The notes under the pieces were generated by a model, which was given only the letters and a program-made list of their open reading frames with translations, had not been told where the DNA came from and did no database searches. Below, in pieces: positions 1-52,585 of a stretch of 64,000 bases of DNA. The position numbers and the translations under genes are program-made. Source of the stretch: a virus (lineage: Duplodnaviria > Caudoviricetes). The stretch is from positions 32,001 through 96,000 of IMG/VR virus record IMGVR_UViG_3300029305_001653, one strand, 5' to 3'. Within the stretch, counting starts at the first letter, position 1, and each line of letters starts with the position of its first letter.

Positions 1-27
1 TACATATGTAGATAGTAGAGAGGCATT

Positions 28-504
28 ATGGATACCTTAAAGAAAATAATAGCAGAAGCATTTAAGTATAAATACATCTCCGAGTCTGCCGTAGAGTGGA
101 TAGGAGGGCATCCATGGGACGATGACTTATTTCATAAGAATGCTGAGAAATTTGGATTGTCCGTAGAACAAGAATTTATATCTGTCCGAGGTAAGTCTCT
201 AGAATTTGACTATGTAGTACTAAATACTCCTACTGTATTCTATCATGCTACTCCAAAAGAGAATGTAGAGAAGATTAAGAAAGAAGGTCTTCTACTATCT
301 AATTCTGCGGAACAGTCAAGAGGTAAATATGTAGTAGGTGTATTCTTATCAGGGTCTAGTGAAGGTATCTCCAGATGGAGAGGAGATAATACTGCTGTAT
401 TAAAGATAATCCTCCCTAGAGGTACTAAAGTATATCAAGATAGACAATCTAATGCAGTTTTCGTTAGAGAAAATATCCCTAGCAAATTTATTTCAGTAAA
501 TTAA
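28..504 (+). CDS. ADP-ribosyltransferase-fold protein (Tpt1/KptA-like, H-x-T type), possibly head-packaged
   Basis: FYHATPKENVEKIKKEGL, GVFLS, AVLKI and terminal NIPSKFI follow the Tpt1/KptA-like ART pattern; N-terminus ...KKIIAEAFKYKYISE-S resembles leader of 6497. Confidence 0.55.
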   Translation: MDTLKKIIAEAFKYKYISESAVEWIGGHPWDDDLFHKNAEKFGLSVEQEFISVRGKSLEFDYVVLNTPTVFYHATPKENVEKIKKEGLLLSNSAEQSRGKYVVGVFLSGSSEGISRWRGDNTAVLKIILPRGTKVYQDRQSNAVFVRENIPSKFISVN

Positions 505-543
505 AGGGATTCTAGTGTATTCGACGTATTATAATAATGTAAG
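505..543 (+). promoter_or_regulatory. Conserved bipartite phage promoter, copy 1 (upstream of SigH-like sigma)
   Basis: AGGGATT-N12-ACGTATTATAATAATGTAAG; one of six copies with identical spacing. Confidence 0.85.
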
Positions 544-564
544 CAATCCAAGAGGAGGATTAGG

Positions 565-1674
565 ATGAATAGTATTAATAATATAGTGAAGAAGCTTCGA
601 GAAAATCGAATATTAAATGAGCGTGAGGACTATAGTAAGTATCCAAGAGATAAGTTAATCTCTCTAGCACAAGATGGAGATCAACTTGCTGTCGAGACTC
701 TTATCTCTACTCATGAAGATTTCATAAAGAGAATGAGTAGTAAGTACTTCCTAGGTAGTGGAGATAAAGAAGATGTGGAACAGATAGCTACTATTGCTTT
801 CTGGGATGCTATCAATACTTACGACCCTAAGATTAGTGGAGATTTCGAAGCTTATGCAGGTAGGACTATTAAACGTAGGATGTCTGATGAGATACGTAAA
901 GAAGCAACTGATAAACGTCAAGCTAATAACTTAGCTACTTCTCTTGATGAGCCTGTAGCTAGTGATGATGAAGGTGGAGAGAGTACTCTAGGTTCTACAT
1001 TATCTTCTCAGGTATCTACAGAAGAAGAGTATCTAGGAAAGTTTGGAGCTCGAGATATAATGAAGTTCATAGAGAATAACTTATCTGATACTGAAAGAGA
1101 AGTTATAAAGAAGTATATTCAAGGTTATAAAATCCCTGAGATAGTGGAGGAGATGGACATGAAGTATAAGAGTGTAGAGAATGCTATCTTGAGAGTGAAG
1201 AATAAACTTGCAGAGCATATGAGAAGATCTCACAGTGAGTCAAAGAAACTGAAAGAGGATAATTCCTTAGAGTTCACAGAAGAAGAGAAGCAGGTACTCT
1301 CTAGCATCTTCGGTAAGATAGAGGAGAAAATTTCTATCAGTGAATCTGTACGTAGTGAGCTTGCAGCTACTTATGAGAAGTATACAGAAGAGCAGTTCGA
1401 TTATGAATTAGAAGATATCGAGGATGATGTAGAGGAGATATTATCCGAGTTAGAGGATACTGACTATGATAGCAGAGATGATCTAATTGATTCTTTAGGA
1501 GATCTAAGAGTTAAGCTCTTGACTATGGAGGAGTTCCTGAGTGATGAGCAATATGAAGTATCAGAGAAAATATTAAGTAATATTCGTAATGCCGAGAATG
1601 TAGAATTCAGAGGAGATACTCCTGACGTAGATCCTTACAGAGATAGAGGATTACGTCAGTCAGATTTTGTATAA
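565..1674 (+). CDS. Sigma-70 family RNA polymerase sigma factor, SigH-like, with N-terminal leader and acidic C-terminal extension
   Basis: LISLAQDGDQLAVETL, SKYFLGSGDKEDVEQ..IAFWDAINTYD (region 2), SLDEPV, LSDTEREVIKKYIQGYKIPEIVEEMDMKYKSVENAILRVKNKL (region 4, close to the SigH KSIDNALQRVKRKL pattern); GGAGG RBS. Confidence 0.9.
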   Translation: MNSINNIVKKLRENRILNEREDYSKYPRDKLISLAQDGDQLAVETLISTHEDFIKRMSSKYFLGSGDKEDVEQIATIAFWDAINTYDPKISGDFEAYAGRTIKRRMSDEIRKEATDKRQANNLATSLDEPVASDDEGGESTLGSTLSSQVSTEEEYLGKFGARDIMKFIENNLSDTEREVIKKYIQGYKIPEIVEEMDMKYKSVENAILRVKNKLAEHMRRSHSESKKLKEDNSLEFTEEEKQVLSSIFGKIEEKISISESVRSELAATYEKYTEEQFDYELEDIEDDVEEILSELEDTDYDSRDDLIDSLGDLRVKLLTMEEFLSDEQYEVSEKILSNIRNAENVEFRGDTPDVDPYRDRGLRQSDFV

Positions 1675-1695
1675 TTCAGGAGGGAGAGATTGATT

Positions 1696-2694
1696 ATGAG
1701 CATTGACAATATAGTGAAGAGACTTAGAGAGTCTAGATTAAATGAAGAATCTAAAAAGTATGAATATAAGTTCGATATTCCGTGGAGAGAATCCATGAGT
1801 AATGAGTATGATGAGATGTATCATTACTATCCTAATATGGAATATGCAGATAGAATCATGAAGTCAGCAATCGCAGATTTCAATGATATAGACTGGTCAG
1901 AGTATACTTCCTCAGATGATCGTACAGAAGATTGTAATATCATCCGTATGACTATGGACTTTGATAGTAAAGGAAACTGCGTCATCACAGTAGTTACTAA
2001 TACTGTATGGGATGATGAACAGATCCAGTCTGTCATGGACTATCTTGAAGGTCAGATGAGTGATGGCTGGGGAGAAGGATTTGAGCAGAGAGAAGTTGCT
2101 CAAGAAACTGACTATGAAGAAGAGTGGGTAGAAGATGAAGAGGAAGAAGATGGAGGATACTATACAGAGAATAGGATTGTAAAGTATTACTATGGTCAAT
2201 TCTGGTGGAGTAGTAGGAGTAATCCGTGGACTATTACACTCCTCAGTACTCCTCATGATAAGAACATGCCTACGAATGAATCTAATAGTATCTCCATGGA
2301 ATTCGCTACAGATTCTGAAGCTCATGAGTGGGCAGAGGAGAATGGTTATCAAGTAGATAAGATTCAGCAAGGTAAGGGAGATAAGTCTTGTATCTGTTGG
2401 ATGAGTAAGATTGAGGAGTCTTCAGATTATCTGAATTCATTTAGTAAAGATGTCATGAGAGCAGTCAATAGTGAAGCTCCTAGTGCTCTTCACTGGAAAG
2501 ATGGAGACCTTGTTCAGAATACTAAAACTAATATAGTAGCTACTTTTAGAGGATATGAAAAGAACTCTATTACAGGTACGTATAGAGCAGTATTTGAGTA
2601 CGAAGATGACGGAGATTCTGTTATTGATAAAATCCCTCTCAAGACATTACAGTCAGATATCAAAAGTAAAATTTTAGTAAAGGTAATGAAATAG
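1696..2694 (+). CDS. Putative internal head (poly)protein with leader MSIDNIVKRLRESRLNE
   Basis: ATG at 1696 fits RBS better than TTG 1690; shared leader; internal TNE-S and IEE-S sites; conserved-looking GQMSDGWGEGFEQRE motif. Confidence 0.55.
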   Translation: MSIDNIVKRLRESRLNEESKKYEYKFDIPWRESMSNEYDEMYHYYPNMEYADRIMKSAIADFNDIDWSEYTSSDDRTEDCNIIRMTMDFDSKGNCVITVVTNTVWDDEQIQSVMDYLEGQMSDGWGEGFEQREVAQETDYEEEWVEDEEEEDGGYYTENRIVKYYYGQFWWSSRSNPWTITLLSTPHDKNMPTNESNSISMEFATDSEAHEWAEENGYQVDKIQQGKGDKSCICWMSKIEESSDYLNSFSKDVMRAVNSEAPSALHWKDGDLVQNTKTNIVATFRGYEKNSITGTYRAVFEYEDDGDSVIDKIPLKTLQSDIKSKILVKVMK

Positions 2695-2717
2695 ATTGAT
2701 CGTAGGTGGTGGAGGAT

Positions 2718-4631
2718 ATGCGTAATTTAAGTAGTATCCCTCAAATTAAGAATCTTAATGAAGAAGAGAGTAGACTATTCTATGCTATTCTGTCAGCGTC
2801 ATCTAATAGATCTTCCTTAGATCTGTCTCCTATTGAAAATTTGTACAAGGTAGACTATGATGAGATCCCTGTATCTATAGATGAATTCCTAGAGAATGAT
2901 TACTATCTAGGAAAAGTATATAATAATGGTAAAAATATCTATCCTTACTGGAGAAATTTCCTACATAACTTCTTCCATGATAATCCAGAGAAGGCTTTCG
3001 AAGTAGCGTTAACAGGAGCTATCGGTGTCGGTAAGACAACTATCGCATCGATAGCTCTTATCTACTTAATATACAAAACTCTTTGTCTCAAAGATCCTCA
3101 AAAATTCTATGGACTATCTGCTAACTCTCCTATCGTATTCGTAGTAATGAATTTAACTTTAGAGTTGGCTTATAGCGGTCTTTATTCCTTGATAGTAGAA
3201 GCTATTAGATTGTCTCCTTGGTTCTGTGAAAGAGTAGATATAAGAGGTAAGTATGAATTCTCTATCACATTCCCTAAGAATGTAGCACTTATGGCTGGAT
3301 CTCAAACTACTCACACAATAGGTAAGAACGTATTAGGAGCTGTACTCGATGAAGTTAACTTCAGTAGTGCTCCTAAAGGTTCTAAAAATTCAGTGATGGA
3401 TATGTATCGTAATATTCGTAGACGTCTTGAGTCTCGATTCTTGAAGCAAGGTCGTATGCCAGGTATCCTGATGATGGTATCTTCTAAGAATACAGAGTTA
3501 GACTTCTTGGAGCAGTATATACAGAGTATCAAACATCAGAAGACTACATGGGTAGTAGATGAACCTGTATATAATATCAAACCTCCAGAGACATACATAG
3601 GTACTAGATTCAAAGTGGCTGTAGGTGATAAAACTAAAGAAAGTTATCTAGTAAAAGAAACAGATGATATAGATGAGATTTTGAGTAGAGGTTATCGTAT
3701 TATAGAAGTACCTACAGAGTATAGAGTAGCATTTGAGCAGGATATTAATGATGCCTTGAAGGACATAGCAGGTATCTCTGCTGTATCCACTAGTAAATTA
3801 ATTCCATATGCTGGACGTATAGATATATGCTTCGATAGTAAACGAAAGTCTCCATTCTATACAGAAGAGATTCAGTTAGGATTAGATAGTATCGATGATA
3901 TAAAAGACTTCTTGGAGGATCTTTCTATTCTAAGAAGAAATCTTAATAAACCAAGATTCGCTCATATAGATATAGGATTAAAGGGAGACAGATTAGGATT
4001 AGCAATCGCTCATAGTAGTAAGTCTATTACAGTAGATAGATATACAGCTACAGGAGCTATAGATAAAGTATCCGAGAATTTGTACGATATTGATTTAATG
4101 CTTTCTATAAAAGCATTACCTGGTAGCGAGATACCTCTCTTTAAAGTACGTGAATTTCTCATATGGCTCAATTCATATATAGGATATAAATTTAAGAAGA
4201 TTACTTTCGACGGATTCCAGTCTGCTGATAGTATCCAGTTATTGCAGATATCAGGATTACCTTCAGGATTGTTGTCTGTAGATAGGACTGATATCCCTTA
4301 TTTAAATCTTCGAGCTTGTATACTAGAACAGAGATTAGTAGGATACTACAATAGTATTTTACTAGAGGAATTACGTGACCTAGAGTATGACAGGAGAGCT
4401 AAAAAGGTAGACCATCCGATAGTTAAGTACGATGGTAGTCCTGGCTCAAAAGACTTATCTGATGCTCTTTGCGGAGCAGTATATAATGCTCAAGAATATT
4501 ATTCGAAGCAGAAAAATAATCATATCTCTAAAGAGACTAATGTTAATGCAGCTATGGATGCTTTAGCTAGACTAAAGAATCTGCGTAATATAGAGAAGAG
4601 TAAAGAGTATGATTGGGTACTATATGATTAA
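2718..4631 (+). CDS. terL: Terminase large subunit
   Basis: Walker A TGAIGVGKTT, Walker B AVLDE, nuclease motifs HIDIGLKGD, TFDGFQS, SKDLSDAL; ATG 2718 preferred over GTG 2706. Confidence 0.9.
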   Translation: MRNLSSIPQIKNLNEEESRLFYAILSASSNRSSLDLSPIENLYKVDYDEIPVSIDEFLENDYYLGKVYNNGKNIYPYWRNFLHNFFHDNPEKAFEVALTGAIGVGKTTIASIALIYLIYKTLCLKDPQKFYGLSANSPIVFVVMNLTLELAYSGLYSLIVEAIRLSPWFCERVDIRGKYEFSITFPKNVALMAGSQTTHTIGKNVLGAVLDEVNFSSAPKGSKNSVMDMYRNIRRRLESRFLKQGRMPGILMMVSSKNTELDFLEQYIQSIKHQKTTWVVDEPVYNIKPPETYIGTRFKVAVGDKTKESYLVKETDDIDEILSRGYRIIEVPTEYRVAFEQDINDALKDIAGISAVSTSKLIPYAGRIDICFDSKRKSPFYTEEIQLGLDSIDDIKDFLEDLSILRRNLNKPRFAHIDIGLKGDRLGLAIAHSSKSITVDRYTATGAIDKVSENLYDIDLMLSIKALPGSEIPLFKVREFLIWLNSYIGYKFKKITFDGFQSADSIQLLQISGLPSGLLSVDRTDIPYLNLRACILEQRLVGYYNSILLEELRDLEYDRRAKKVDHPIVKYDGSPGSKDLSDALCGAVYNAQEYYSKQKNNHISKETNVNAAMDALARLKNLRNIEKSKEYDWVLYD

Positions 4632-4651
4632 ACAGGAGGTGAAGATTTTCT

Positions 4652-5599
4652 ATGAATTGTATATCTGAGATACTGCAATCTCTCAGAGAAAGTAGGGTCA
4701 GAGAAACTGTATTCGTCTATAAAGGTGCAGAGTATGAGAATAGATATGGGAATTATTATAGAAATCATAAACCTATCTCTAAGAAAGAGTATCATATTGC
4801 TCGGAGAGGGATACTATCTCAGAAAGACACACAAGGTACTATAGAGTATAGATTGAATTTACCTTACAAAGAATTCGCTAAGAAGATAGAGGATTTTCAA
4901 GAATTCATAGATGAGCTAGAGTATGACAAGGAGTACGAATTACCTAGAGAGACAAGAGGTCATCTTCCTAGGATAGATCCTTATGATGAGTATGAGAGAG
5001 TAGCTCAGATCATGGAAGATACTCAGATGTCTAAATTTGAAGCTTCTCAGGTAAATGATATCCTTTCTAGATATACATCTACTGATAGTTATACTACATT
5101 CTCAGATGAAGAAAAAGAGCTGTTAGATACTTACATAGATACTTCACCTATTTACTCTCCTCCTCCTGTATATAGAGGATTAGGGTTTAGAAAAAGATTA
5201 GGAGACGATAGTCTTAGTGGGTATAAATTGTTCTTAGATTTAGAAGAAGGTAGTGTAATTTCCTCTGAGAATTATTCATCTTTCAGTAGTAATCTTGATG
5301 TTGCAGTAGCATTTGCGAGTACTCACGGAGACTATCATGTGTACATCGTTAATACTAAGAATTTGTCTGGAGTAAGTATAGACCATTTATCTTCTATAGA
5401 CTACAATGAAGATGAGTTAATTTACAAAGCTAATACTAATATGACTGTCTTGAAGAAATTAGTGAAAGACAATATAGTTTATCTTCACGTTATAGAGTCT
5501 CCTATAGAAGAAGATTCAGAGGAAGAGATAATAAAAGTACCTCTACAAGGTAGTATGTTTATAGAGGAAGGAAGAAATTATGCGAGAAATCATAGATAG
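4652..5599 (+). CDS. R-S-E clade ADP-ribosyltransferase (Alt/ModA/VIP2-like) with leader MNCISEILQSLRESRVRE
   Basis: PVYRG, NYSSFSSNLDVAVAFA, GVSIDHLS, NEDELI (ExE, typical of arginine-specific ARTs). Confidence 0.8.
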   Translation: MNCISEILQSLRESRVRETVFVYKGAEYENRYGNYYRNHKPISKKEYHIARRGILSQKDTQGTIEYRLNLPYKEFAKKIEDFQEFIDELEYDKEYELPRETRGHLPRIDPYDEYERVAQIMEDTQMSKFEASQVNDILSRYTSTDSYTTFSDEEKELLDTYIDTSPIYSPPPVYRGLGFRKRLGDDSLSGYKLFLDLEEGSVISSENYSSFSSNLDVAVAFASTHGDYHVYIVNTKNLSGVSIDHLSSIDYNEDELIYKANTNMTVLKKLVKDNIVYLHVIESPIEEDSEEEIIKVPLQGSMFIEEGRNYARNHR

Positions 5600-6080
5600 A
5601 CTAAGGACTAGTCGTATAGACGAAGCTAGGAAGAAAGTAGCTTTAGAAGCTCTAGCTACAGAGTTAAAAGATAAGTTATCTAAAGTAGAAGGTTACTCTC
5701 ATCATAAATTATCTATATCTCCGAACTACGATGAAGGATGCGTAGATGTACTATTCAGAGGTACTGATGATGCTTTTAGAGTATACCCTCAGAAGACTAA
5801 GATCTCTAATGAGAATTCTAATAAAGTAATATCTGTATCTTCTATAGATGGAGCTTATATATTAGGTACTAAAGTATATGATGAGGAAGGTAATTTGTTA
5901 GGAGAAGCTTTAGTAAGAACAAAAGCTGTACATAACAAATCAGATTACTCTGAGGACTTAACAAAAGCTGAGTATCGTTTTAATTCTAAGATTACTAATC
6001 TTCAGAAGTTAGAAAAGTATATAGCTAGGGAAGCTATTAATAATATGGAAAAGAACTCTAGAAAGAGAAGGGATTCTTAG
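5580..6080 (+). CDS. Hypothetical protein with leader MREIIDRLRTSRIDE (putative internal head protein)
   Basis: ORF plus shared leader motif. Confidence 0.55.
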   Translation: MREIIDRLRTSRIDEARKKVALEALATELKDKLSKVEGYSHHKLSISPNYDEGCVDVLFRGTDDAFRVYPQKTKISNENSNKVISVSSIDGAYILGTKVYDEEGNLLGEALVRTKAVHNKSDYSEDLTKAEYRFNSKITNLQKLEKYIAREAINNMEKNSRKRRDS

Positions 6081-6107
6081 TTGTATCACGTATTATAATA
6101 ATGTAAG
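6069..6107 (+). promoter_or_regulatory. Conserved bipartite phage promoter, copy 2
   Basis: AGGGATT-N12-ACGTATTATAATAATGTAAG followed by TAAGG-GAAA-CCTTA hairpin. Confidence 0.85.
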
Positions 6108-6139
6108 GGAAACCTTATAATAATAAAAGGAGAGATAAT

Positions 6140-6442
6140 ATGTATATTGAACCTACAAAAGAAGTAAAAGAAGGCTCTATTTTTGATATTCATGAAGATG
6201 CTATGGATATATTACTCTATCCTGCTAGTGAAGACGTACCCTGTCCTTGGGATGCAGATATCATTATCAAAGATGGAGAAGTTATCCTCTCTGGAGGACT
6301 AGGACCTGGATTCTTCGGAGGAGCTAAATGTATCTGTAATTGTACTATAGGTAGATTTTCTCAGTTCTACAAGTTAGAGGTACCTGAAGATAATGAAGAA
6401 CTTATTGATGCTTTAACTTCTGCAGGATGGGAAGTAGTGTAA
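6140..6442 (+). CDS. Hypothetical acidic protein in its own promoter-gene-terminator unit
   Basis: AAAGGAG RBS; flanked by promoter copy 2 and a hairpin. Confidence 0.65.
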   Translation: MYIEPTKEVKEGSIFDIHEDAMDILLYPASEDVPCPWDADIIIKDGEVILSGGLGPGFFGGAKCICNCTIGRFSQFYKLEVPEDNEELIDALTSAGWEVV

Positions 6443-6453
6443 TTCATGTCGAT

Positions 6454-6486
6454 ATAAAAGAAGAGTATCAGATACTCTTCTTTTAT
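6454..6486. terminator. Intrinsic terminator-like palindrome
   Basis: ATAAAAGAAGAGTATC-A-GATACTCTTCTTTTAT. Confidence 0.75.
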
Positions 6487-6496
6487 TTAAGAAGGA

Positions 6497-6877
6497 GTGA
6501 TATTGTTGACTATAGAAGAAAAGATTAAAGAAGCGTTCAAGAAAGATAAGTTACTGAAGGAAGCTTCTAAGTGGGATCCTGAAACTCATCCTAATATCTA
6601 TGAATTATCTAATTTCCTGAGGAAGTCAGGATACAAACTAGTAGATATTATCCCTCAGAATACTGAACTATTAATAGAACCTGTAGAGAAAACATATATG
6701 TATCCTGAGATATTACATGACGTACCTACTAAGAGTTTTCATATAAAAGTAGTAGAACATGGATTCTTGGTATCCTCCGATGTAGAGAGTGTAATATCAG
6801 GGTATGAAAATGCTCTAGGAGTAGTACGTCATCTTGAAGCTCTAGATCTTGACAAATTAGAAATTGAAGAGGAGTAG
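6497..6877 (+). CDS. Hypothetical protein with leader ..EKIKEAFKKDKLLKE-A (true start probably TTG 6503/6506)
   Basis: ORF with AAGGAG RBS; leader similar to that of ORF 28. Confidence 0.55.
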   Translation: MILLTIEEKIKEAFKKDKLLKEASKWDPETHPNIYELSNFLRKSGYKLVDIIPQNTELLIEPVEKTYMYPEILHDVPTKSFHIKVVEHGFLVSSDVESVISGYENALGVVRHLEALDLDKLEIEEE

Positions 6878-6952
6878 TTACTACTATACTACTTCCTAGC
6901 ATAGCAGATAAGAAAACCATTCACGTAAGTAAAGAAATAAAGGAGGTGAGGA

Positions 6953-8641
6953 GTGAAGATGGGATTATTCAGTAAATCTAAGAAGCCTACTCAATCAAAC
7001 TCTCTCCCTGATGAAGCTTCTCTTCTGAAATATATAGCTAATCTGACTCCTGAAGATATAGATCTTCTGAAAGATGCAGCTATCAATAGATACAATGTAA
7101 ACCCTGAAGAGAGAAGTAAATCTTTAACAGATTATTTTAATCTGTTAAATTCTGTATTTAACAATGTTAATTTCAACTCTACAGGAAATACTCCTCATAC
7201 TAGAAATCAAAGGTATGAGATATATGATGAGATGGATGAGAGTACAGCGTATATCTCTTCTGCACTAGATATCCTTTCTGATGACGCTACACAAGCAGAT
7301 GAAGAAGGTATTATCATACATATTAAGTCTGAGTCAGCTAAGATACAGACTTTAGTCTCTGAATTCTTCGAAGAATTCGAGATAGAAGATAAAATATCTA
7401 AGTGGACAAGAGCAGTTGCGAAGTACGGAGATCTATTCATCAAGGTAGGAGGAGAGTACGGAAGAGGAGTAACTCATGTTAATGATACTATCTATCCTAG
7501 TATCATTGAACGTAGAGATCTGAATGGTAAATTAGTAGCTTTTTCTAATAGTCAAGATTCTGTCTACTCTAATACAGACTTGTACGCTCCTTGGGAGTTC
7601 ATACATTTTAGACACAAGGGAGATATCTATAAGGAAGAGAGTACTCATACACGACTAGGGAATAATGATGATACATTCGATAAGAATTTAACATCTGCGT
7701 ATGGACAGTCTATACTACGTCCAGCTATAAAAGTATACGCTCAGTTAAGATTCGTCGAGAATATGATTCTTCTTTCTCGATTGACTAATAGTATTCGTAG
7801 AAATATATTTTTAATCAATGTAGGAGATGTATCTCCTGATAAAGCTTTTGAGACTATATCTAATTATGCTCGATTATTAAAAAAGGATATTAATTTAAAT
7901 ATTGAAGAAGGTATATACTCATCTTCCAAGCATACTGTAAATTATGATGAAGATATCTTCATTCCTGTAGGAGATCCTCAGAATGATGTACGTATAGAGT
8001 CTGTAGGAGGAGAAGTTAATATACAGGAGCAGTATGATTTAGAGTACCTACTAAATAAATTATTTTCTGCATTAAAAGTCCCTAAAGCTTATCTGAACTA
8101 TGAACAAGATCTAAATGCAAGATCTACTCTCATACAATTAGATATACGATATGCAAGATCAGTAAGTCAGTTACAGACTACTATGACTGCAGGATTACGT
8201 AGATTAGTTAAGATTCATTTAGCTTATCTAGGACTGAACCCAGATGAAGTAGATTTAGATATCACATTGACTCCTGTCTCTGCTATAGATGAAGAAGCTA
8301 GAGCAGAACAGCAGCAAAAACAGATATCTAATGCAAGAGACATGTGGGACGTATTAACTTCTATGAGAGATGGTATAGGAGAGACTGCAGAGCCTATGAA
8401 TATATCAGAAGCTGCAGAGCATATTATGAGTAAGTACCTTGAGTTAGACAAGTCTATTATAGATAAAATCTTTAATAGAGAGTCTGATATAAATCCTCCT
8501 ACTAGAGTATTCAGTCATAGAGAGTATAGAGGTACAGACTATAATGCTATGTATCCGTCTACTAGCAATCAGGAAAGATATGAGCAAATTAGAGAGTCTT
8601 TAATAGACTCTAAAATTAATAATACAGAACAAATTCACTAA
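6953..8641 (+). CDS. Portal protein (T4 gp20-like)
   Basis: RYEIYDEMD..ISSALDILSDDA, HFR, YGQSILRPA, ENMILLSRL..RNIFLINVG, LFSALKVPKAYL; position after terminase. Confidence 0.88.
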   Translation: MKMGLFSKSKKPTQSNSLPDEASLLKYIANLTPEDIDLLKDAAINRYNVNPEERSKSLTDYFNLLNSVFNNVNFNSTGNTPHTRNQRYEIYDEMDESTAYISSALDILSDDATQADEEGIIIHIKSESAKIQTLVSEFFEEFEIEDKISKWTRAVAKYGDLFIKVGGEYGRGVTHVNDTIYPSIIERRDLNGKLVAFSNSQDSVYSNTDLYAPWEFIHFRHKGDIYKEESTHTRLGNNDDTFDKNLTSAYGQSILRPAIKVYAQLRFVENMILLSRLTNSIRRNIFLINVGDVSPDKAFETISNYARLLKKDINLNIEEGIYSSSKHTVNYDEDIFIPVGDPQNDVRIESVGGEVNIQEQYDLEYLLNKLFSALKVPKAYLNYEQDLNARSTLIQLDIRYARSVSQLQTTMTAGLRRLVKIHLAYLGLNPDEVDLDITLTPVSAIDEEARAEQQQKQISNARDMWDVLTSMRDGIGETAEPMNISEAAEHIMSKYLELDKSIIDKIFNRESDINPPTRVFSHREYRGTDYNAMYPSTSNQERYEQIRESLIDSKINNTEQIH

Positions 8642-8670
8642 AGACTTTTAGAGAAGAGAGGTAAAATTCG

Positions 8671-10245
8671 ATGAGACGTAATAAACTTTTAGAATCTTTG
8701 AGTGCTAAATCTCAGGAGAATACAATGTTCAGAAGATATAATCTATCTGAGATTATATCTGAGAGTTACAAGACTCTCTACGATAGTGAGAGAGGATCTA
8801 ATCTCCAGAAGCTAGTAGAAGCACATCTCGAAGATGTAAGGAACAATCCTACAGATATTGATAGACTTTCTCGTCAGTTATGCAATCTAAAATATTTATC
8901 GATGATGGTAGAGTCTAAAAAGATGGAGGATGAAGAGCTTTTAGTCCCTGAAGAGGAGTATAGTAAAGTAGTTCCTGACGAGACTATAGAAGAGTCGAAA
9001 GAGGCAGAAGAGAAAGAGGTAGTAGAGGAAAATGACAAAACAGTTGCAGGAGATATAGAACTCTCTGATGAAGAATTAGAGGAATTAGCTAAGCATCTAG
9101 AAGAGATTCGTAAGAATAAGAAAACTAATGAGTCTTCTAGACCTCGTAGATTGAAGAAGTTAGGAGAAGCAGAGGTCTCAGGGTATACCTGGGATAGTGA
9201 GTGGTCTAAAGAATATGGACTCTCTGGACGTACAAAGTATTATATCAATAGAGGAGAATCTCTTGATAATCAGATTATAGGTACTATTTATGAGCCTGAT
9301 GGTGAAGAGTTTTTAGACTACGGTGTTGATATCTACGATACTCGTAAAAATGATATATTAGCAGGTACAGGTTATGATGAAGATGCTAATAGTTTTAGTT
9401 CGGAAGAAGAAGCTAAAAGATGGGTAGAGAATTGGTTCTCTAAAAATCTGAAAGAATCTTCTAGACCTCGTAGATTGAAGAGAACTAATGAATCTTCTTC
9501 ATGGGATAGAATTCCCTTGACTGAGTTCAAGAAGAAGTCGGCTACTAAGGCTTTCGTGAAGACATTCAGAAAGCTAGATAGTAAATTGCGTGAAGGTGCA
9601 GCACTAACTCGTCAAGAGTCTATTGCTCTTTATAAAGCAGCTAATTCTGCTATGACTCAACTCTCCGTAGAGTTAGAATACAATCCTGAATTCCTTAATA
9701 CATTCAGAGAATCTACACAGCTCCTTTCTGTAGATGTATCTAAGTTATTAGGTAGCTTAATGGAAGGTAAAGCTCCTAGTAAAGCTACTATGAAGTCTTT
9801 AGCTAAATTCTCTGAAGCTCTCCTCTATGAAGAGGAAGAAGAGGAGTTACCTCCTATCGAAGACGAAGATGTTAATTCCTCTGAAGAGTCTGAGGAGTTT
9901 GATCAGGAGTATGCAGAGGCGAGAGTAGAGTTACATAAAGAGTTAGCTAAAGAACATGAAGATTCTGAAGATCCTGATGTCCAAGAGAAACTCTCTCAGG
10001 ATGCAGAGGAAGTAACATCTTTACCTGGAATCACTGAGGAGCAAGTTGCTGAGATCGTAGGAGAAGAAGAATCAGAAGAAGAAGAAGCTCCTGTAGAAGA
10101 TGAATCTGACTCAGAGCTAGAAGAGGAAGAAGATATTACAGATGAGGAATTAGCTGCTCTCAAGAAACATCTCAAAGAGATGAGAGACACTAAGAAGAAT
10201 CCTGTAGAAGAGTCTACTAAACCTCGTAAATTACTTAAGAGGTAA
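8671..10245 (+). CDS. Prohead core/scaffold-like acidic polyprotein with many x-x-E-S sites
   Basis: Between portal and protease; very Glu-rich; repeated (T/L)xESSRPRRLK and DEEL..L.KHL.E.R units. Confidence 0.6.
   Translation: MRRNKLLESLSAKSQENTMFRRYNLSEIISESYKTLYDSERGSNLQKLVEAHLEDVRNNPTDIDRLSRQLCNLKYLSMMVESKKMEDEELLVPEEEYSKVVPDETIEESKEAEEKEVVEENDKTVAGDIELSDEELEELAKHLEEIRKNKKTNESSRPRRLKKLGEAEVSGYTWDSEWSKEYGLSGRTKYYINRGESLDNQIIGTIYEPDGEEFLDYGVDIYDTRKNDILAGTGYDEDANSFSSEEEAKRWVENWFSKNLKESSRPRRLKRTNESSSWDRIPLTEFKKKSATKAFVKTFRKLDSKLREGAALTRQESIALYKAANSAMTQLSVELEYNPEFLNTFRESTQLLSVDVSKLLGSLMEGKAPSKATMKSLAKFSEALLYEEEEEELPPIEDEDVNSSEESEEFDQEYAEARVELHKELAKEHEDSEDPDVQEKLSQDAEEVTSLPGITEEQVAEIVGEEESEEEEAPVEDESDSELEEEEDITDEELAALKKHLKEMRDTKKNPVEESTKPRKLLKR
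9133..9481 (+). repeat. Perfect 25-bp direct repeat (9133-9157 and 9457-9481) flanking an in-frame 108-codon module
   Basis: TCTTCTAGACCTCGTAGATTGAAGA twice, 324 bp apart. Confidence 0.9.
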
Positions 10246-10256
10246 GTAAGAGGAGT

Positions 10257-10643
10257 ATGGAGTATATAGTTAGGCGTCTAATAGAGTCTCGTAGACTCGA
10301 AGAAGCTAGAGGAGATACGACATTAAGACAAACTCTTGAGATATTAGCTGATGAATTTAATATAGAGAATTATGACTCTACTATAGAGTACTGCCTTCAT
10401 CATAAAAATGGTAACCATGATGAAAATAAGTTATACAATCTAGTACTTATGCCTAGTAGACGTCACAATAGTTATCATACTAAACTCAATCGTAGAGGTA
10501 TAGATAAACAGTCTAAAGAAGCTCTAGAACTCTTCGATAAAGAGTATGCAAACGACTGTGTATTCGTAGGAGAATTTCTTTACAGTAAGTTGATATTAGC
10601 TACTCAAGAAGTAAAAACAGCAGATAGTGAATGTCTAGAATAA
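10257..10643 (+). CDS. HNH-motif protein with leader MEYIVRRLIESRRLEE
   Basis: LHHKNGNHDENKLYNLVLMPSRRHNSYH is a beta-beta-alpha-Me HNH motif. Confidence 0.75.
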   Translation: MEYIVRRLIESRRLEEARGDTTLRQTLEILADEFNIENYDSTIEYCLHHKNGNHDENKLYNLVLMPSRRHNSYHTKLNRRGIDKQSKEALELFDKEYANDCVFVGEFLYSKLILATQEVKTADSECLE

Positions 10644-10657
10644 GATAATACTCTTTG

Positions 10658-10689
10658 ATACTGAGTGTAGTCAGTACTACACTCAGTAT
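10658..10689. terminator. Stem-loop, probable terminator
   Basis: ATACTGAGTGTAGT-CAGT-ACTACACTCAGTAT followed by TTCTTT. Confidence 0.7.
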
Positions 10690-10744
10690 TTCTTTAGATA
10701 TTTATAATAATACACATAATTAACAAGAAATGAGGTGAAACTCT

Positions 10745-11860
10745 TTGCAGCTTGTAGAAAAATCTATAGGTCCTTTATCAACTCAAGGAAAGAAAATCTT
10801 ATCAGGACTTTTTGCTGAGCTAGGTACACTTAATCAAAATGGCAGACGCTATCCTGATGACATATACGAATCTGCGTATGAAGAGTTGATACCAAAGATA
10901 AAAGATAAAAGATTGTTAGGTGAATTAGATCACCCTGTAGACTACGATGAAGTTAGATTATCTAATGTTTCTCATGTCATTACAGACTGTGAGATTCTAG
11001 AAGATCAAGGAGTCAAGAAAGTATATGGCTCTGTCGAATTATTAGATACTCCAGCTGGATTGATAGCTCAGTCTTTAGTAGAAGCAGGTATTCCTTTAGG
11101 CATCTCTTCTAGAGGAGTAGGCTCTACAAGACAAGTAAGAGATGGAGTAGAAGTTACTGACTTAAAACTTATCACTTATGATTTAGTAGCTGATCCGTCA
11201 TTTGCTAATGCGGTACTTTCTCCAGATCAGTCTAAAAAATTATCAGATAGTCTAGAATACATTGAGTCTAAACTACCTCTAAATGAATCTTTAGAGCATA
11301 ATAGCATAAGAGATATGATACATAATATTCGTGAATCTCTCATTAGTAAGAAGACTACTCCTACTAAAGAGATTAGTATAAATAAAGCAGAGACTGATAA
11401 TCTAAAAAGATTATTAGAGACTGCAGAGTCTACTATTAAATCAGATACAGAGAAGATGATAGAGTCTCGTAAAGAGATTAAATCTTTGAGAAGAGAGCTC
11501 ATGAGTGCTAATAAGAAGTATGAAAGCTTATTAGAAAATATGTTTAATCTACAAGAAGATTATAATAGATTGAAAGAAGCCTCTACCTATAAAGAAAAGA
11601 TTAATTCTCTTGAGCTAGAAATCGTAGAGCTAAGAAAAAATTTAGCTGTTGAAAAGAGAGGTATGTCGTACTCTCAAGTATCTGAATTACTAGAAGGAGC
11701 TAATACTATAGATGAAATCGAGAATAGACTGAATTCTCTATCTTCTGTAGGACGGAAACGTCAGACTACCATCAATATACAGTCTAATACTTTGACTGAG
11801 AGTACTAAGACTGAAAATCCTAGATTGTCTGGATTAGCTGCTATAGTATCTAGAGTTTAG
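10745..11860 (+). CDS. Prohead protease (T4 gp21-like) with C-terminal coiled-coil scaffold-like region
   Basis: NQNGRRYP, LGELDHP, VSH, GISSRGVGS, YDLVADPS. Confidence 0.92.
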   Translation: MQLVEKSIGPLSTQGKKILSGLFAELGTLNQNGRRYPDDIYESAYEELIPKIKDKRLLGELDHPVDYDEVRLSNVSHVITDCEILEDQGVKKVYGSVELLDTPAGLIAQSLVEAGIPLGISSRGVGSTRQVRDGVEVTDLKLITYDLVADPSFANAVLSPDQSKKLSDSLEYIESKLPLNESLEHNSIRDMIHNIRESLISKKTTPTKEISINKAETDNLKRLLETAESTIKSDTEKMIESRKEIKSLRRELMSANKKYESLLENMFNLQEDYNRLKEASTYKEKINSLELEIVELRKNLAVEKRGMSYSQVSELLEGANTIDEIENRLNSLSSVGRKRQTTINIQSNTLTESTKTENPRLSGLAAIVSRV

Positions 11861-11880
11861 TTAATTAGGAGGATATTTTA

Positions 11881-13386
11881 ATGAAGTTCAATAATAACAA
11901 GACTCTCGCTGAGAGTGTAATTATGAGAGGTCTTGATCTCTCTGAGTCTCGTAGATGGAAAGACTACACAACTGCTATCCGTGAAGGTTACAAGCAGAAG
12001 CACAAGTCTTCTATTCCGGACAATATCATCGCTACTACTGCTACTCTTCTTGAGAATACTTATCAGTATGCAGCTCGTATGGATGAAACAACTAGAGCAG
12101 TAAATCTCGGTACTTTCATCGACTATGGTTTCGATGTTATCTCCGCTACTGTTCCTAACCTTATCGCTCATGATATCGTATCCGTTCAGCCTATGAACGC
12201 TAAGCATGGTGCTATCTTCTATCTCCAGTACCTCTACGGTAACAACAAGGGTACTATCACTGCAGGTACTGAGATGAATTCTCCGTTCACTGGTATCAAT
12301 GGTAACTCCTTCAACTTCTCTAATGACGTAGTTGATGGTGAGTCCATTGGTCTTGGTGATGGTGCTACTACATCTTTCTCTACTACATTAGGTTACACTC
12401 CTGTACGTTCAGGTGCTACTGTAATTTATGTAGGCGGTGTTGAAGTTGCTAGAGTAGTTAGCTCTGCAAATGGTGTAGATACACTCGCAGCAATCGCTGG
12501 TTCTGGTGTATCGGGTACTGTAAACTTAGCTACTGGTGAAATTTCTCTTACTCTTGCAAATGCTCCTGCAGCAGATGCAGCAATCACTGCAGTTTATCGT
12601 TATGATATGGATCTAACTACTGTAGGTTACTCTCAGGTAGATCTTGATCTCGCTTCTATCTCTCTTGAAGCATTCCCGAGAAAGCTTCGTGCTCGTTGGC
12701 TCCTTGATGCTGGCTTCGAACTTCAGAAGATGAAGGGTATCGATGCTGAGTCTGAACTTGTTACTGCTATGAGCAATGAGATCAAGTTTGAAATCGATGG
12801 TGAGCTTCTCAAGGAACTCTATGCTAAGGCTGCTTGGACTGGATTCACTTGGGACTGCCAGATGCCTGGTAATCAGCTTAGCTACATGGAATACAAGCGT
12901 ACTATTATCGATCTCTTTACTGAAATGAGTAATAAGATCTTCACTGGTACAAAGCGTGTAGGTGCAAACTTCATTGTAGCTGGTGTTAATGTATGTAATA
13001 TCATTGAGACACTTCCTGAGTTCTCTGCTGATAACCTTGGTACTAAGTCTATCAATGGTCCTCACAAGATCGGTCGTCTCTCTAACAAGTGGGATGTTTA
13101 CAAGAATCCGTTCTACAATGACAACAACTTCGTACTTGGTTACAAGGGTAGCTCTTGGTTAGATGCTGGTTTCGTATACGCTCCTTACATGCCTCTCTAC
13201 GCTACTCCGACTCAGGTACTTGATGACTTCATCTTCCGTAAGGGTCTTGCTACTTCTTATGGTCAGGTGATGCTCAACAACAAGCTCTATGCTAAGGGTA
13301 GTATTACTAACTTCACTGCATCTCGTATGGTTAGTGATGCACTCACTGTTTCTCCTGCAGAAGGCTCTATCTGGGCTAATGCTTAA
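11881..13386 (+). CDS. Major capsid protein (T4 gp23-like)
   Basis: PNLIAHDIVSVQPM, RKLRARW, ELVTAMSNEIKFEID, GYKG..DAGFVYAPYMPL; high-expression codon bias. Confidence 0.95.
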   Translation: MKFNNNKTLAESVIMRGLDLSESRRWKDYTTAIREGYKQKHKSSIPDNIIATTATLLENTYQYAARMDETTRAVNLGTFIDYGFDVISATVPNLIAHDIVSVQPMNAKHGAIFYLQYLYGNNKGTITAGTEMNSPFTGINGNSFNFSNDVVDGESIGLGDGATTSFSTTLGYTPVRSGATVIYVGGVEVARVVSSANGVDTLAAIAGSGVSGTVNLATGEISLTLANAPAADAAITAVYRYDMDLTTVGYSQVDLDLASISLEAFPRKLRARWLLDAGFELQKMKGIDAESELVTAMSNEIKFEIDGELLKELYAKAAWTGFTWDCQMPGNQLSYMEYKRTIIDLFTEMSNKIFTGTKRVGANFIVAGVNVCNIIETLPEFSADNLGTKSINGPHKIGRLSNKWDVYKNPFYNDNNFVLGYKGSSWLDAGFVYAPYMPLYATPTQVLDDFIFRKGLATSYGQVMLNNKLYAKGSITNFTASRMVSDALTVSPAEGSIWANA

Positions 13387-13414
13387 TCTCTAGAGAATAG
13401 AGTATATACTGAGT

Positions 13415-13442
13415 AAGGGAGGAGGAGGAATCCTCCTCCCTT
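13415..13442 (+). terminator. Terminator after major capsid gene
   Basis: AAGGGAGGAGGA-GGAA-TCCTCCTCCCTT then TATA. Confidence 0.7.
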
Positions 13443-13472
13443 TATACATTTATAGAAAGATGAGGTGATCGT

Positions 13473-14168
13473 ATGCTACTATCTGAATTAGTAGAAGAGA
13501 TTAAAGTCGACTTAGGGTGCGATATAAATTCTTTAGGTATCAGTGATGAGTCTATAGCAAGAAAAGTACATGAAGCACTTAGGAAGATTAGTATATATGC
13601 TCCTTATGTTTGCGTAGAGAACTTTACTGTAGAAGGTAACTCTGTACAATTACCTAAAGATACTACAACTGTAGTCGAAGTACTTAATCTAGATAAACCT
13701 TCTGCTACTAGAGCTAGAGTAGTAGCAGATGACACTGATCTATTCTCTGTGAGTAGGTATTTGTACAACTATAATGATCTTAGTGACCCTTATATCTTCT
13801 TGATGCAAAAGAATGCAGTGAGCACTCTCCAGAATTTTGTAAGACTCACAGATACAAGATTTGAGAAGTCTGAACATAAATTATATCTTAGTAACGTTGA
13901 TGTAAAGAATCTATGTATTAAATATCTCAGGAACTACAGATCAGTAGAAGAAATAGAGGATAATGATGTATTACAGAGAGTGAAAGAGTACGCACTAGCT
14001 TTATGTAAGATAATAGAAGGGAATATCCGTAGAAAATTACAGTCAGCTCCAGGAGCTATTCAGTTAGATGGAGATAGTCTAGTATCTGAAGGCATGGAGG
14101 AGAAACGCAATATAGAGGAAAGACTAGTTTCAGAATTCCAGAACATAAGATTTGGAATTAGATGTTAG
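13473..14168 (+). CDS. Neck/head-tail adaptor (T4 gp13-like)
   Basis: EYALALCK..G.IRRK..GAIQLDGDSLVSEG pattern; position after capsid. Confidence 0.7.
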   Translation: MLLSELVEEIKVDLGCDINSLGISDESIARKVHEALRKISIYAPYVCVENFTVEGNSVQLPKDTTTVVEVLNLDKPSATRARVVADDTDLFSVSRYLYNYNDLSDPYIFLMQKNAVSTLQNFVRLTDTRFEKSEHKLYLSNVDVKNLCIKYLRNYRSVEEIEDNDVLQRVKEYALALCKIIEGNIRRKLQSAPGAIQLDGDSLVSEGMEEKRNIEERLVSEFQNIRFGIRC

Positions 14169-31085: not shown

Positions 31086-31685
31086 TTGATTTCTATAGTA
31101 GGTACTAGAATATACATATATCAGAGTATAGATTATGCTTTTAGAGTCAAGTATAGAAATTCAGAAGGAGATATCTTTAACTTTACTCCTACAGATACTA
31201 TAACTATGATAATCCGTGATAGAGATACTGAAAAGATTATTCTCTCTAAAGTAGCTGAGTCTATAACTATAAACGATGAACCATGTTCTATAATCGTATT
31301 TACTTCTCGAGATATGATACCTAAAGGAGACTATAAGTATGATCTAATACTAGGTACTATAGATGACTCCAAACATATGTTGGTTAGTAAAGCTGATTTA
31401 AATGTACTAGAGGATAGAACCCTTACAAGAGATCTACCTCAATTAGGAGAATTCGAACCTCATTCTTTAGAAGACATAAATAGCAATACTATGTCTCTCA
31501 GTAAAGATGAACTAATATGTAATTTTACTCCTATCATAATTAATAAGGAAGAAGCAGAAGGAACTCTCATATTATTCAATAAGATAAATAAAGTTGATGA
31601 TACAGACGAAGATACTACTGAAGGTGATTTAATACTATTTGACCCTAAAGTAGAAAATTCTGAAGATACTCTAATATTATTCTAG
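31086..31685 (+). CDS. Putative baseplate/fibre-attachment protein (BppU N-terminal-like)
   Basis: beta-rich N-terminus with GDYKYDL. Confidence 0.4.
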   Translation: MISIVGTRIYIYQSIDYAFRVKYRNSEGDIFNFTPTDTITMIIRDRDTEKIILSKVAESITINDEPCSIIVFTSRDMIPKGDYKYDLILGTIDDSKHMLVSKADLNVLEDRTLTRDLPQLGEFEPHSLEDINSNTMSLSKDELICNFTPIIINKEEAEGTLILFNKINKVDDTDEDTTEGDLILFDPKVENSEDTLILF

Positions 31686-31701
31686 GAAAGGAGAGAGTTA
31701 T

Positions 31702-32355
31702 ATGGCTAATTACAAAGTAGCTTACGGTCATAAAGATAATATAGACTTAGCTATTACCTTAGGAGTTATACCTCCAGGTAGTATAATACTCACAGAAGAT
31801 TCTAATGAAATTTTCTTCTATGACCTTAATAATAGAATAAAGACTTATGAACAAAGATATAAATTTGAGTCCTATGAGGAAGCTGAGTCCTGGGTACAGA
31901 GATACAATTGTCAGGGGCAGATTCTTTCTGTCCATGAAGTTGATAAATGTAATCTGTATATAGTAGAGTACGATAACCAGTTACGTAAATTAGGTGCAGA
32001 CTACAAAGCATCTGATAAGAACCCTACTATAGACGACATTGGATATGACCTACTTACTCACTGGATTAATGTTGTAACTGAAGATGTATACATCTTAGTT
32101 TCTTTAAAAGATAATAAAGCTTCTTGGAAGAAACTAGTAACAGATATTACTGATTCTAAAGATTTATCTTATAAGTTCACTCAGTCTACTAAAGCTTCTA
32201 AGTGGGTAATAGACCACAGTCTAGGAAAATATCCTTCAGTCTCTGTAATAGATGATTTAGGTAATGCTGTAATAGGTGATGTAGCTTATATTGATGAAAA
32301 TTCTATCTATCTAGAATTCACTAGTCCTGTTGCAGGTTACGCTTATCTCAATTAA
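31702..32355 (+). CDS. Putative tail fibre-associated structural protein
   Basis: C-terminal W.IDHSLGKYPSVSVID..G module. Confidence 0.5.
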   Translation: MANYKVAYGHKDNIDLAITLGVIPPGSIILTEDSNEIFFYDLNNRIKTYEQRYKFESYEEAESWVQRYNCQGQILSVHEVDKCNLYIVEYDNQLRKLGADYKASDKNPTIDDIGYDLLTHWINVVTEDVYILVSLKDNKASWKKLVTDITDSKDLSYKFTQSTKASKWVIDHSLGKYPSVSVIDDLGNAVIGDVAYIDENSIYLEFTSPVAGYAYLN

Positions 32356-51979: not shown

Positions 51980-52585
51980 ATGAATAACAACATTGACTGG
52001 AAAGAGATAGAAGATAAAATAGCTATCATCTGTTACAAATTTAGTAACTTATCTTCATACCATGAAGATTTAGCACAAGAGCTTAGAATCCACGCCTACT
52101 ATGTCTCAGATAATTATTATGACTTGTATCGTAAAGCTATAGACTTCTGGAGAAAGTTACAATCTAGACAGTCTCCTGAAGTTCCTTACTTTGATTTAGA
52201 ACTTTTAGGAGGTTCCTATTCCATGGAGAAAGAAGCTACAGATCAGTTTAACGATATAGTATTTCTTATCCGTAAGGAATTAAATAGATTTCCTCAGAGT
52301 AAGTGGGATAGTAATAAGATAGACGTAGCTACGAAACTTTTAGATATCATCTTAGAAGATATAGACCCTAAGAAGGTAGAAGGTAATTCTGATATAGTAG
52401 GAGATTCTAATCTTAACCACTATATCAATCATAGACTAAATTTATCATGGGTTTCTGAAGAGACAGGTATCGGATATAAACAGATAGTTATGGCTATGAA
52501 ACTCTTAGAAGATATAGTTAGAGGATTACATGCTATGAAGAAGATAGAGATTCCTTTAGAGTATTTCCAGGGATACTACGAATAA
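51980..52585 (+). CDS. Divergent sigma-70-like factor (region 2 and region 4-like HTH)
   Basis: HEDLAQEL..RKAIDFWRK (region 2-like); LSWVSEETGIGYKQIVMAMKLL (HTH). Confidence 0.55.
   Translation: MNNNIDWKEIEDKIAIICYKFSNLSSYHEDLAQELRIHAYYVSDNYYDLYRKAIDFWRKLQSRQSPEVPYFDLELLGGSYSMEKEATDQFNDIVFLIRKELNRFPQSKWDSNKIDVATKLLDIILEDIDPKKVEGNSDIVGDSNLNHYINHRLNLSWVSEETGIGYKQIVMAMKLLEDIVRGLHAMKKIEIPLEYFQGYYE

Follow-up and report, generated by a model that had tools for sequence, protein, structure and literature searches.

The DNA analysed in this study (the window) is a stretch of 64,000 nucleotides, bases 32001-96000 of a 112,222-bp IMG/VR virus record (Caudoviricetes), and five of its proteins begin alike: a SigH-like sigma factor, an ADP-ribosyltransferase (ART)-like protein, a small HNH endonuclease and the products of two open reading frames (ORFs), ORF1696 and ORF5580. 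The leader that they share is real and far beyond chance. We believe that it is probably a capsid-targeting propeptide of the type of the capsid-targeting sequence (CTS) of phage T4, in a new sequence form and on new cargo. A preliminary description of this DNA had proposed a portable packaging tag, and the predictions that a T4-type propeptide makes at the sequence level all hold: the leader occurs only at the extreme N-terminus, is 15-19 residues long, sits on unrelated bodies, ends in hydrophobic-x-Glu with a free P2 position, lies in the head-assembly block and is accompanied by a gp21-family protease. Two additions of that description, a second class of leaders and a likeness of the leader to parts of the portal protein and the protease, were not supported.

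The general idea is textbook knowledge for T4. Studies have shown that IPI, IPII and IPIII of T4 carry a CTS and Alt a propeptide, and that gp21 cleaves these off (Mullaney and Black 1996; reviews PMC3012670, PMC9026906). These N-terminal propeptides on the IP proteins and on Alt have a length of 7-19 residues and target the proteins to the core (PMC9026906, PMC8442874, PMC3012670). The CTS MKTYQEFIAE requires residues 8 and 10 for its processing, and T4 head proteins have propeptides of 7 to 65 residues (PMC9026906, PMC8442874). CTS-like sequences on varied proteins of T4 relatives have already been noted in the review literature. New in this study are the leader sequence, the distant Firmicute-phage lineage, which by its sequences is only distantly T4-like, and a sigma factor as an unusual cargo.

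The shared N-terminal leader

The five N-termini read exactly as had been described, at 565, 1696 (or TTG 1690), 4652, 5580 and 10257, each behind a plausible ribosome-binding site (RBS). Their consensus is I-[IV]-x-x-L-[RI]-[ET]-[SN]-R-(x)-[LIV]-x-E. The endings follow the pattern hydrophobic-x-Glu, with LNE, LNE, VRE, IDE and LEE in the window and MSE and LLE in L004, one of four closer uncultured relatives from IMG/VR (capsid identity 80%; about 67-68% for the other three, G001-G003). When regular expressions of the motif in strict, core and loose versions were run on the six-frame translations of the window and the whole record, these five places were the only matches. When the N-terminal 24-mers of the record were compared all against all, leader pairs scored 60, 44, 39, 38, 38 and 33, and the 99.9th percentile of internal 24-mers was 31.

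A hidden Markov model (HMM) of the five leaders, such as the preliminary description had suggested building and scanning with, was searched against a 1.2-million-residue six-frame set from about 60 T4-like loci. Outside the training set, the top matches were the two L004 leaders, which scored 18.5 and 13.6 bits and were each placed precisely at the start of an ORF; the next match, at 7.9 bits, lay in a non-coding frame. With a larger leader HMM, seven leaders of five genomes scored 22-52 bits and all else at most 6.9 bits; every match of at least 22 bits began at ORF residue 1-4. A leader profile of seven sequences found 12 matches at E<=0.001 among 1.84 billion proteins. Eleven of them began at residue 1-12 and were all homologues of the sigma factor or of ORF1696, and the twelfth was a repeat protein. 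Residues 1-40 of ORF1696, searched against a set of 5.8 billion proteins, found only the query itself.

N-termini that are short, helical and rich in I, L, R and E occur commonly, and a resemblance by chance or a functionless relic of a recent DNA duplication or recombination might be suspected. This explanation is refuted to a good approximation and seems to us extremely improbable, given that background matches were zero in 112 kb and about 60 other loci, that the codons are divergent, and that the leader is conserved across proteins otherwise 41-60% identical. In the DNA alignment the leader codons differ, with TCT or AGT for Ser and CGN or AGR for Arg; selection therefore acts on the peptide and not on the DNA or RNA. 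A repeat at the DNA level or an RNA element is ruled out by the same codon diversity.

That otherwise unrelated proteins begin alike, as had been claimed, was borne out for the five in the window by family searches and BLAST. A sixth cargo family is L004_70, where the leader stands on a 92-residue protein that has no counterpart in the window's genome; among all six bodies, family matches differ or are missing and BLAST gave no mutual similarity. The leader genes are also close neighbours. The head-assembly block occupies the first 13 kb of the window, with every gene on the + strand, and all five leader genes lie within the 12 genes from the sigma factor to the capsid protein, out of about 130 genes (hypergeometric probability about 3 in a million, for a block chosen post hoc).

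The sigma factor offers the largest sample of leaders. About 50 homologues with 41-60% identity were found, and about 48 carry the leader; the leaderless ones are two distant homologues (26-30% identity) and one with a deletion. Leaderless homologues, including P0057 and P0058, begin about where the leader ends, and matches in cultured phages begin at residue 23-31 and never include it. Across an alignment of 40 homologues, no segment of the protein is better conserved than the leader: it has 3.45 bits per column, whereas regions 2 and 4 have 2.96 and 3.23, respectively. I7, R12 and E13 are invariant, and L11, R15, L17 and E19 are present in at least 90%. The P3 Leu (L17) and the P1 Glu (E19) were each found in 37 of the 40, and the commonest P2 residue (Asn, position 18) in 23. 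Because P3 and P1 are conserved with P2 varying, the pattern fits a cut site. In the AlphaFold2 (AF2) model built from 40 sequences (pLDDT, predicted local distance difference test, 77), the leader forms a helix of residues 2-18, followed by a break at residues 19-22 before the core, and the Glu lies at the break.

The leader is kept in other cargo families as well. It is present on 5/5 ART-like homologues with Glu18 invariant, and in three homologues of ORF1696 (P0061, P0064 and P0065) its endings are INE, INE and MNE, respectively.

The head block and the proposed role of the leader

A gp21 homologue had been placed at 10745, and both the Peptidase_S77 match and the alignment of the catalytic residues confirm it. 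Aligned to T4 gp21 (5JBL), the protease has His63 (GELDHP), Ser122 (GISSRG) and Asp146 (ITYDLV) in place; the identity of the His-Ser-Asp triad of T4 gp21 was taken from the literature (PMC5694885). The capsid proteins of the clade share a conserved T-L-L-E/N-T, which in the window is found at residues 55-60 (nt 12043-12060). Residue 33 of the mature T4 protein, gp23*, aligns to capsid residue 86, and the first residue of gp23* falls at about residue 54; LLE/NT lies within about 5 residues of the T4 gp23 cut position. A cut after E58 is likely to be the maturation cut of this capsid protein. The density of [LIVM]-x-E in the scaffold-like protein (4.8 per 100 residues) and in the protease (4.6) is about twice the overall value of 2.1, with 1.6 in the portal and capsid proteins; this supports the link to the protease weakly, as the figures are confounded by composition.

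We propose that the leader helix would dock its cargo on the scaffold and protease core that grows on the portal during prohead assembly. Once the shell is closed, the S77 protease would cut after the leader Glu of each cargo protein (Table 1), and the same protease would cut the capsid protein at L-L-E58 and fragment the scaffold. The freed cargo would then remain in the head together with the DNA. With less confidence, we speculate that the cargo may be ejected into the host infected next, and that its sigma factor, ART-like enzyme and nuclease could act there before any phage gene is expressed.

The resemblance of this proposal to T4 is close in several respects. In both cases there is a short N-terminal propeptide on unrelated, dispensable proteins, ending in (L/I)-x-E, and in both there is a gp21-family protease, a gp20 portal, a gp23 capsid protein and an ART or ART-like cargo (compare Alt). 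Unlike the T4 CTS, the leader here is longer than the ten-residue MKTYQEFIAE and does not resemble it, having a conserved L-R-E-S-R core within its 15-19 residues; a sigma factor and an HNH nuclease are part of the cargo, the genes lie inside the head operon whereas those of T4 are scattered, and the system is known from sequence alone. Looser analogues are known from giant phages and from phage P1. In the giant phages phiKZ, 201phi2-1 and SPN3US, propeptides of head and ejection proteins are also cut after Glu, and they are thought to target proteins, including virion RNA polymerase subunits, to the head for ejection (PMC5694885, PMC7411985). However, those propeptides are mostly at least 100 residues long and have no common leader, the protease is of family S80 and not S77, and a whole polymerase rather than a sigma factor is delivered (PMC5694885, PMC7411985). 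In phage P1, an N-terminal segment of at most 30 residues of DarB suffices to bring a protein into the capsid for delivery, but the Dar proteins have no consensus and no evidence of removal by a gp21-type protease, and they belong to another head lineage (PMC9024508).

Entry into the core does not have to be followed by delivery. Most core proteins of T4 are destroyed after assembly (PMC9026906), and the helix could act only as a helper of core assembly, bringing proteins into the prohead core that are later degraded or expelled with the scaffold, so that nothing reaches the next host. Such a role would fit the loose resemblance of the leader to the scaffold N-terminus and to a conserved protease motif, and the frequency of [LIVM]-x-E inside the sigma factor, which is 3.8 per 100 amino acids. 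On the other hand, it is not obvious how a sigma factor, an ART-like enzyme or a nuclease would help to build a head, and the cargo genes are accessory, being missing at these positions in L004 and G001 where the head genes are kept. The CTS cargo of T4, moreover, survives and is ejected. We consider a role confined to the core unlikely.

The resemblances just mentioned are themselves loose. The N-terminus of the scaffold-like protein is MRRNKLLESLSAKSQE. The preliminary description had pointed to IRES strings in the portal tail and the protease, and IRESL is indeed present at 8588 and 11327, but its likeness to the leader is not significant (at most 3 bits against the leader HMM), and homology of these strings to the leader was not supported. 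The protease motif MIHNIRESLI (residues 191-200, nt 11315-11344) is kept in 5/5 relatives. A docking motif common to leader, portal and protease is put forward here as a hypothesis only. The scaffold-like protein also contains three copies of [ED]-E-S-[ST]-[RK]-P-R-[RK]-L-[LK]-K, the last of them at the C-terminus and two of them after an acidic helix EEL..L.KHL.E.R; these repeats may be docking or cleavage modules.

A sigma factor with an N-terminal extension also recalls Bacillus pro-sigma-E and pro-sigma-K, whose activation by removal of an N-terminal pro-sequence is established; the analogy concerns the sigma cargo only. Like ours, these Firmicute-type sigma factors have an extension of about 20 residues ahead of region 2, which a dedicated protease removes (SpoIIGA and SpoIVFB) or, in our case, would remove, and the SpoIVFB:pro-sigma-K complex was among the fold-search matches of our sigma factor. 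The leader might therefore be an inhibitory pro-sequence that has nothing to do with packaging and keeps potentially harmful enzymes and the sigma factor inactive until the phage S77 protease or a host protease removes it, a matter of timing within one infection; untimely activity of all three recognisable cargoes (sigma, ART and HNH) could be costly. Unlike the Bacillus extensions, however, the leader also stands on five non-sigma families and has no membrane-tethering character, and the candidate protease is a capsid-maturation enzyme. The leader is not known to resemble the pro-sigma-E/K sequences. There is no evident need for the same control of the small proteins ORF5580 and L004_70, and the position in the head module is left unexplained. 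Furthermore, the closed prohead is where procapsid proteases of this family are active (PMC9026906). For these reasons we find an inhibitory pro-sequence improbable.

About equally improbable is a docking peptide without a role in the capsid, for another common partner, which might be the RNA polymerase of the host, a chaperone, or an unfoldase to which the helix would serve as a degradation tag. It is plausible that the sigma factor and the ART-like protein act on RNA polymerase, and lower-scoring leader-like N-termini do occur outside the head module (G000 107131 and 23968/24362). Yet the true leaders (at least 22 bits) are confined to the head block, with the next best match at 6.9 bits, the HNH nuclease has no known need for RNA polymerase, and a strictly kept hydrophobic-x-Glu ending in which P2 is free is more readily explained by a protease site than by a binding helix.

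Several points weigh against a capsid-targeting propeptide as well. We infer packaging, cleavage and injection by this uncultured phage only from its sequence, and the cut specificity of the S77 protease is assumed from T4. By eye, the leader is unlike MKTYQEFIAE except for the I/L-x-E ending. A G001 homologue of ORF1696 is without an N-terminal leader, and in the same genome a leader-like helix, DL[SN]EIIYNKIRES[KR]IK.L.E/S, lies in the middle of two proteins (L014:875-1891 and the ORF at 101371) and not at the N-terminus. Two ART-like homologues have a poor P3 (KDE and VEE). The HNH gene is absent at its position from all relatives (L004 and G001-G003) and could be a selfish mobile homing endonuclease. 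The pLDDT of the sigma leader helix is only moderate (53-62). Finally, the sigma gene stands behind the same promoter-like class as replication and topoisomerase genes, described below, so the protein may be made when no proheads exist and its expression may not be purely late.

As an observation apart, one of the two G001 proteins with the internal helix has BspA-type leucine-rich repeats. A 196-residue protein just before the window (record 31425-32015) has the N-terminus MMNNLIAQELVRSRMKRLRE followed by DFS, which scores 38 against the sigma leader in the 24-mer comparison and about 0 bits with the leader HMM. The short N-termini of its G001 and L006 homologues are different and end in L-x-E or Y-x-E.

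If a capsid-targeting propeptide is the right explanation, the principle of the T4 CTS would extend to a distant lineage with a different peptide and would go with the gp21-type protease, not with a particular sequence. The proteins delivered into a Firmicute host could then be read from the sequence, the sigma factor first among them, and the tag could be considered as a handle with which foreign proteins are loaded into phages of Gram-positive gut bacteria.

The sigma factor and a promoter-like element

For the sigma factor at 565, Pfam, PHROG and fold evidence agree with the earlier assignment, and regions 2 and 4 are present. Sigma70_r2 (PF04542) matched at 3e-12, above the cut-off, r4_2 (PF08281) scored 25.2 against a cut-off of 25.7 and was just below it, and ECF also matched. 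The PHROG sigma factor match was 1.5e-25, and Bacillus subtilis SigH (9a4r_A) was the best match of the fold search. The acidic helical tail of 145 residues (pLDDT 83-95) is fused to the sigma core in the window; in L004 (L004:363-1538) a single TGA sets it apart as an ORF of its own, and several sigma homologues of about 250 residues are without it. A profile search of genome contigs with the sigma alignment gave no match.

Before the sigma gene lies a copy of a promoter-like element, AGGGAWW-N12-ACGTAT-TATAATAATGTA. The window has six copies, at 505, 6069, 19942, 51901, 58800 and 60634, against 0.11 expected, and 10 more in the rest of the record bring the number to 16. The copies are always on the + strand, 60-90 nt before a gene, and some precede topoisomerase, ligase, replication and other non-structural genes. 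A second sigma-like gene (51980-52585; 201 residues), which is leaderless, has its own copy in front. A scan for sigma-70-type promoters in positions 1-14000 gave a count equal to the shuffle expectation.

We tentatively suggest, as a possibility that we would not yet call probable, that the SigH-like sigma factor is packaged, trimmed and injected and turns the host core RNA polymerase onto this promoter class, including the copy before its own gene, with the ART-like protein and the HNH protein as co-injected helpers. If this were true, a phage with promoters that depend on a phage sigma factor would have its bootstrap problem solved by the injected protein. The sigma factor would correspond to what N4 and phiKZ have in their virion RNA polymerases, and phages could carry a promoter-specificity subunit into the cell instead of a whole polymerase. 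No report of a packaged or virion-delivered sigma factor was found in the literature searched, which is not proof of novelty.

Other cargo, neighbouring genes and relatives

The features of the window discussed in this study are collected in Table 1.

Table 1. Leaders, genes and promoter-like element of the window; positions are counted from its first nucleotide
Feature	Position	Strand	Basis or remark
Leader 1, MNSINNIVKKLRENRILNE	565..621	+	On the sigma factor; predicted cut after Glu19
Leader 2, MSIDNIVKRLRESRLNE	1696..1746	+	On ORF1696; predicted cut after E17
Leader 3, MNCISEILQSLRESRVRE	4652..4705	+	On the ART-like protein; predicted cut after E18
Leader 4, MREIIDRLRTSRIDE	5580..5624	+	On ORF5580; 26.6 bits against the leader HMM; predicted cut after E15
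Leader 5, MEYIVRRLIESRRLEE	10257..10304	+	On the HNH protein; 23.4 bits against the leader HMM; predicted cut after E16
Tpt1/KptA-like (RNA 2'-phosphotransferase-like) protein, proposed class-2 leader MDTLKKIIAEAFKYKYISE	28..504	+	PHROG 3e-4 (weak)
Promoter-like element, AGGGATT-N12-ACGTAT-TATAATAATGTA	505..541	+	Before the sigma gene
SigH-like sigma factor (core about residues 20-222) with 145-residue acidic helical tail	565..1674	+	Pfam, PHROG and fold match
ORF1696 protein, conserved N-domain (FDIPWRE ... GQMSDGWGEGFEQRE ... GQFWW)	1696..2694	+	Homologues only
Terminase large subunit-like ATPase	2706..4631	+	PHROG terminase large subunit 5e-6
ART-like protein (R175, S210-x-S212, E253-x-E255)	4652..5599	+	Invariant motifs; PDB profile matches
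ORF5580, 166-residue protein	5580..6080	+	Leader
Small ORF	6140	+	Between ORF5580 and the portal
Small protein, proposed class-2 leader	6497..6877	+	True start probably TTG 6503 or 6506 behind RBS AAGGAG
Portal protein, gp20 family, C-terminal YEQIRESLIDSK at nt about 8579-8614	6953..8641	+	Pfam Portal_T4 2.2e-41
Scaffold-like acidic protein	8671..10245	+	Position and composition only; between portal and protease as T4 gene 22
Small HNH endonuclease	10257..10643	+	PHROG HNH 9e-8; weak Pfam HNH_3
Prohead protease, S77/gp21 family, long C-terminal coiled region	10745..11860	+	Pfam Peptidase_S77 (PF03420) 4.8e-15, above cut-off
Major capsid protein, gp23 family	11881..13386	+	Pfam Gp23 3.6e-56

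Alt of T4 is an ART, and the product of the gene at 4652 had been called one too. This call was weakly supported. R175, S210/S212 and E253/E255 are invariant in six aligned homologues, and the top two matches of a PDB profile search were the ARTs Vis (E 0.037) and ExoT (E 0.25), with the STS and ExE motifs aligned; however, these E-values are weak and there was no Pfam match. PHROG gave a 'minor head protein' match at 6e-9, and the AF2 model from six sequences was poor (pLDDT 49). An ADP-ribosyltransferase is probable from these motifs, not proven. The gene directly upstream of the sigma gene weakly matches Tpt1/KptA, which is also an enzyme of the ART fold.

The HNH call was upheld by its PHROG match. 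For ORF1696 and ORF5580 there was no match in Pfam, PHROG or PADLOC; an Atlas search gave no usable lead for the former and only weak leads, none usable, for the latter.

The second class of leaders had been proposed for the genes at 28 and 6497. Both N-termini read as quoted, but they form a single pair on unrelated bodies, and their N-terminal 24-mer score is within the null, so that a family of class-2 leaders is not supported. The orthologue of the 6497 protein in L004 is ORF 3656.

Among named phages, the nearest to the window by capsid protein are Listeria phage LIS04, Bacillus phage SP-15 (Thornevirus) and Bacillus phage HSE3, all about 40% identical. Megablast of the window against cultured phages gave no match, and no common N-terminal tag was seen in the head regions of the Thornevirus relatives LIS04 and HSE3. 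Scans of IMG/VR with the protease or the portal protein alone gave zero or one locus, and a metagenome scan with a terminase alignment added no usable relative (L058 was not syntenic).

A further motif, L-[RL]-[KG]-S-G-Y-[KR]-[LV]-V, is repeated in small proteins: in the window at 6497-6877, in L004 at 1152-1538, in G001 (L014) at 679-843, and in the record at 23968 and 24362. In some of these small proteins it comes directly after a leader-like helix (MEEIISRLEDRR..., MRNTIDKLHEQRQI...).

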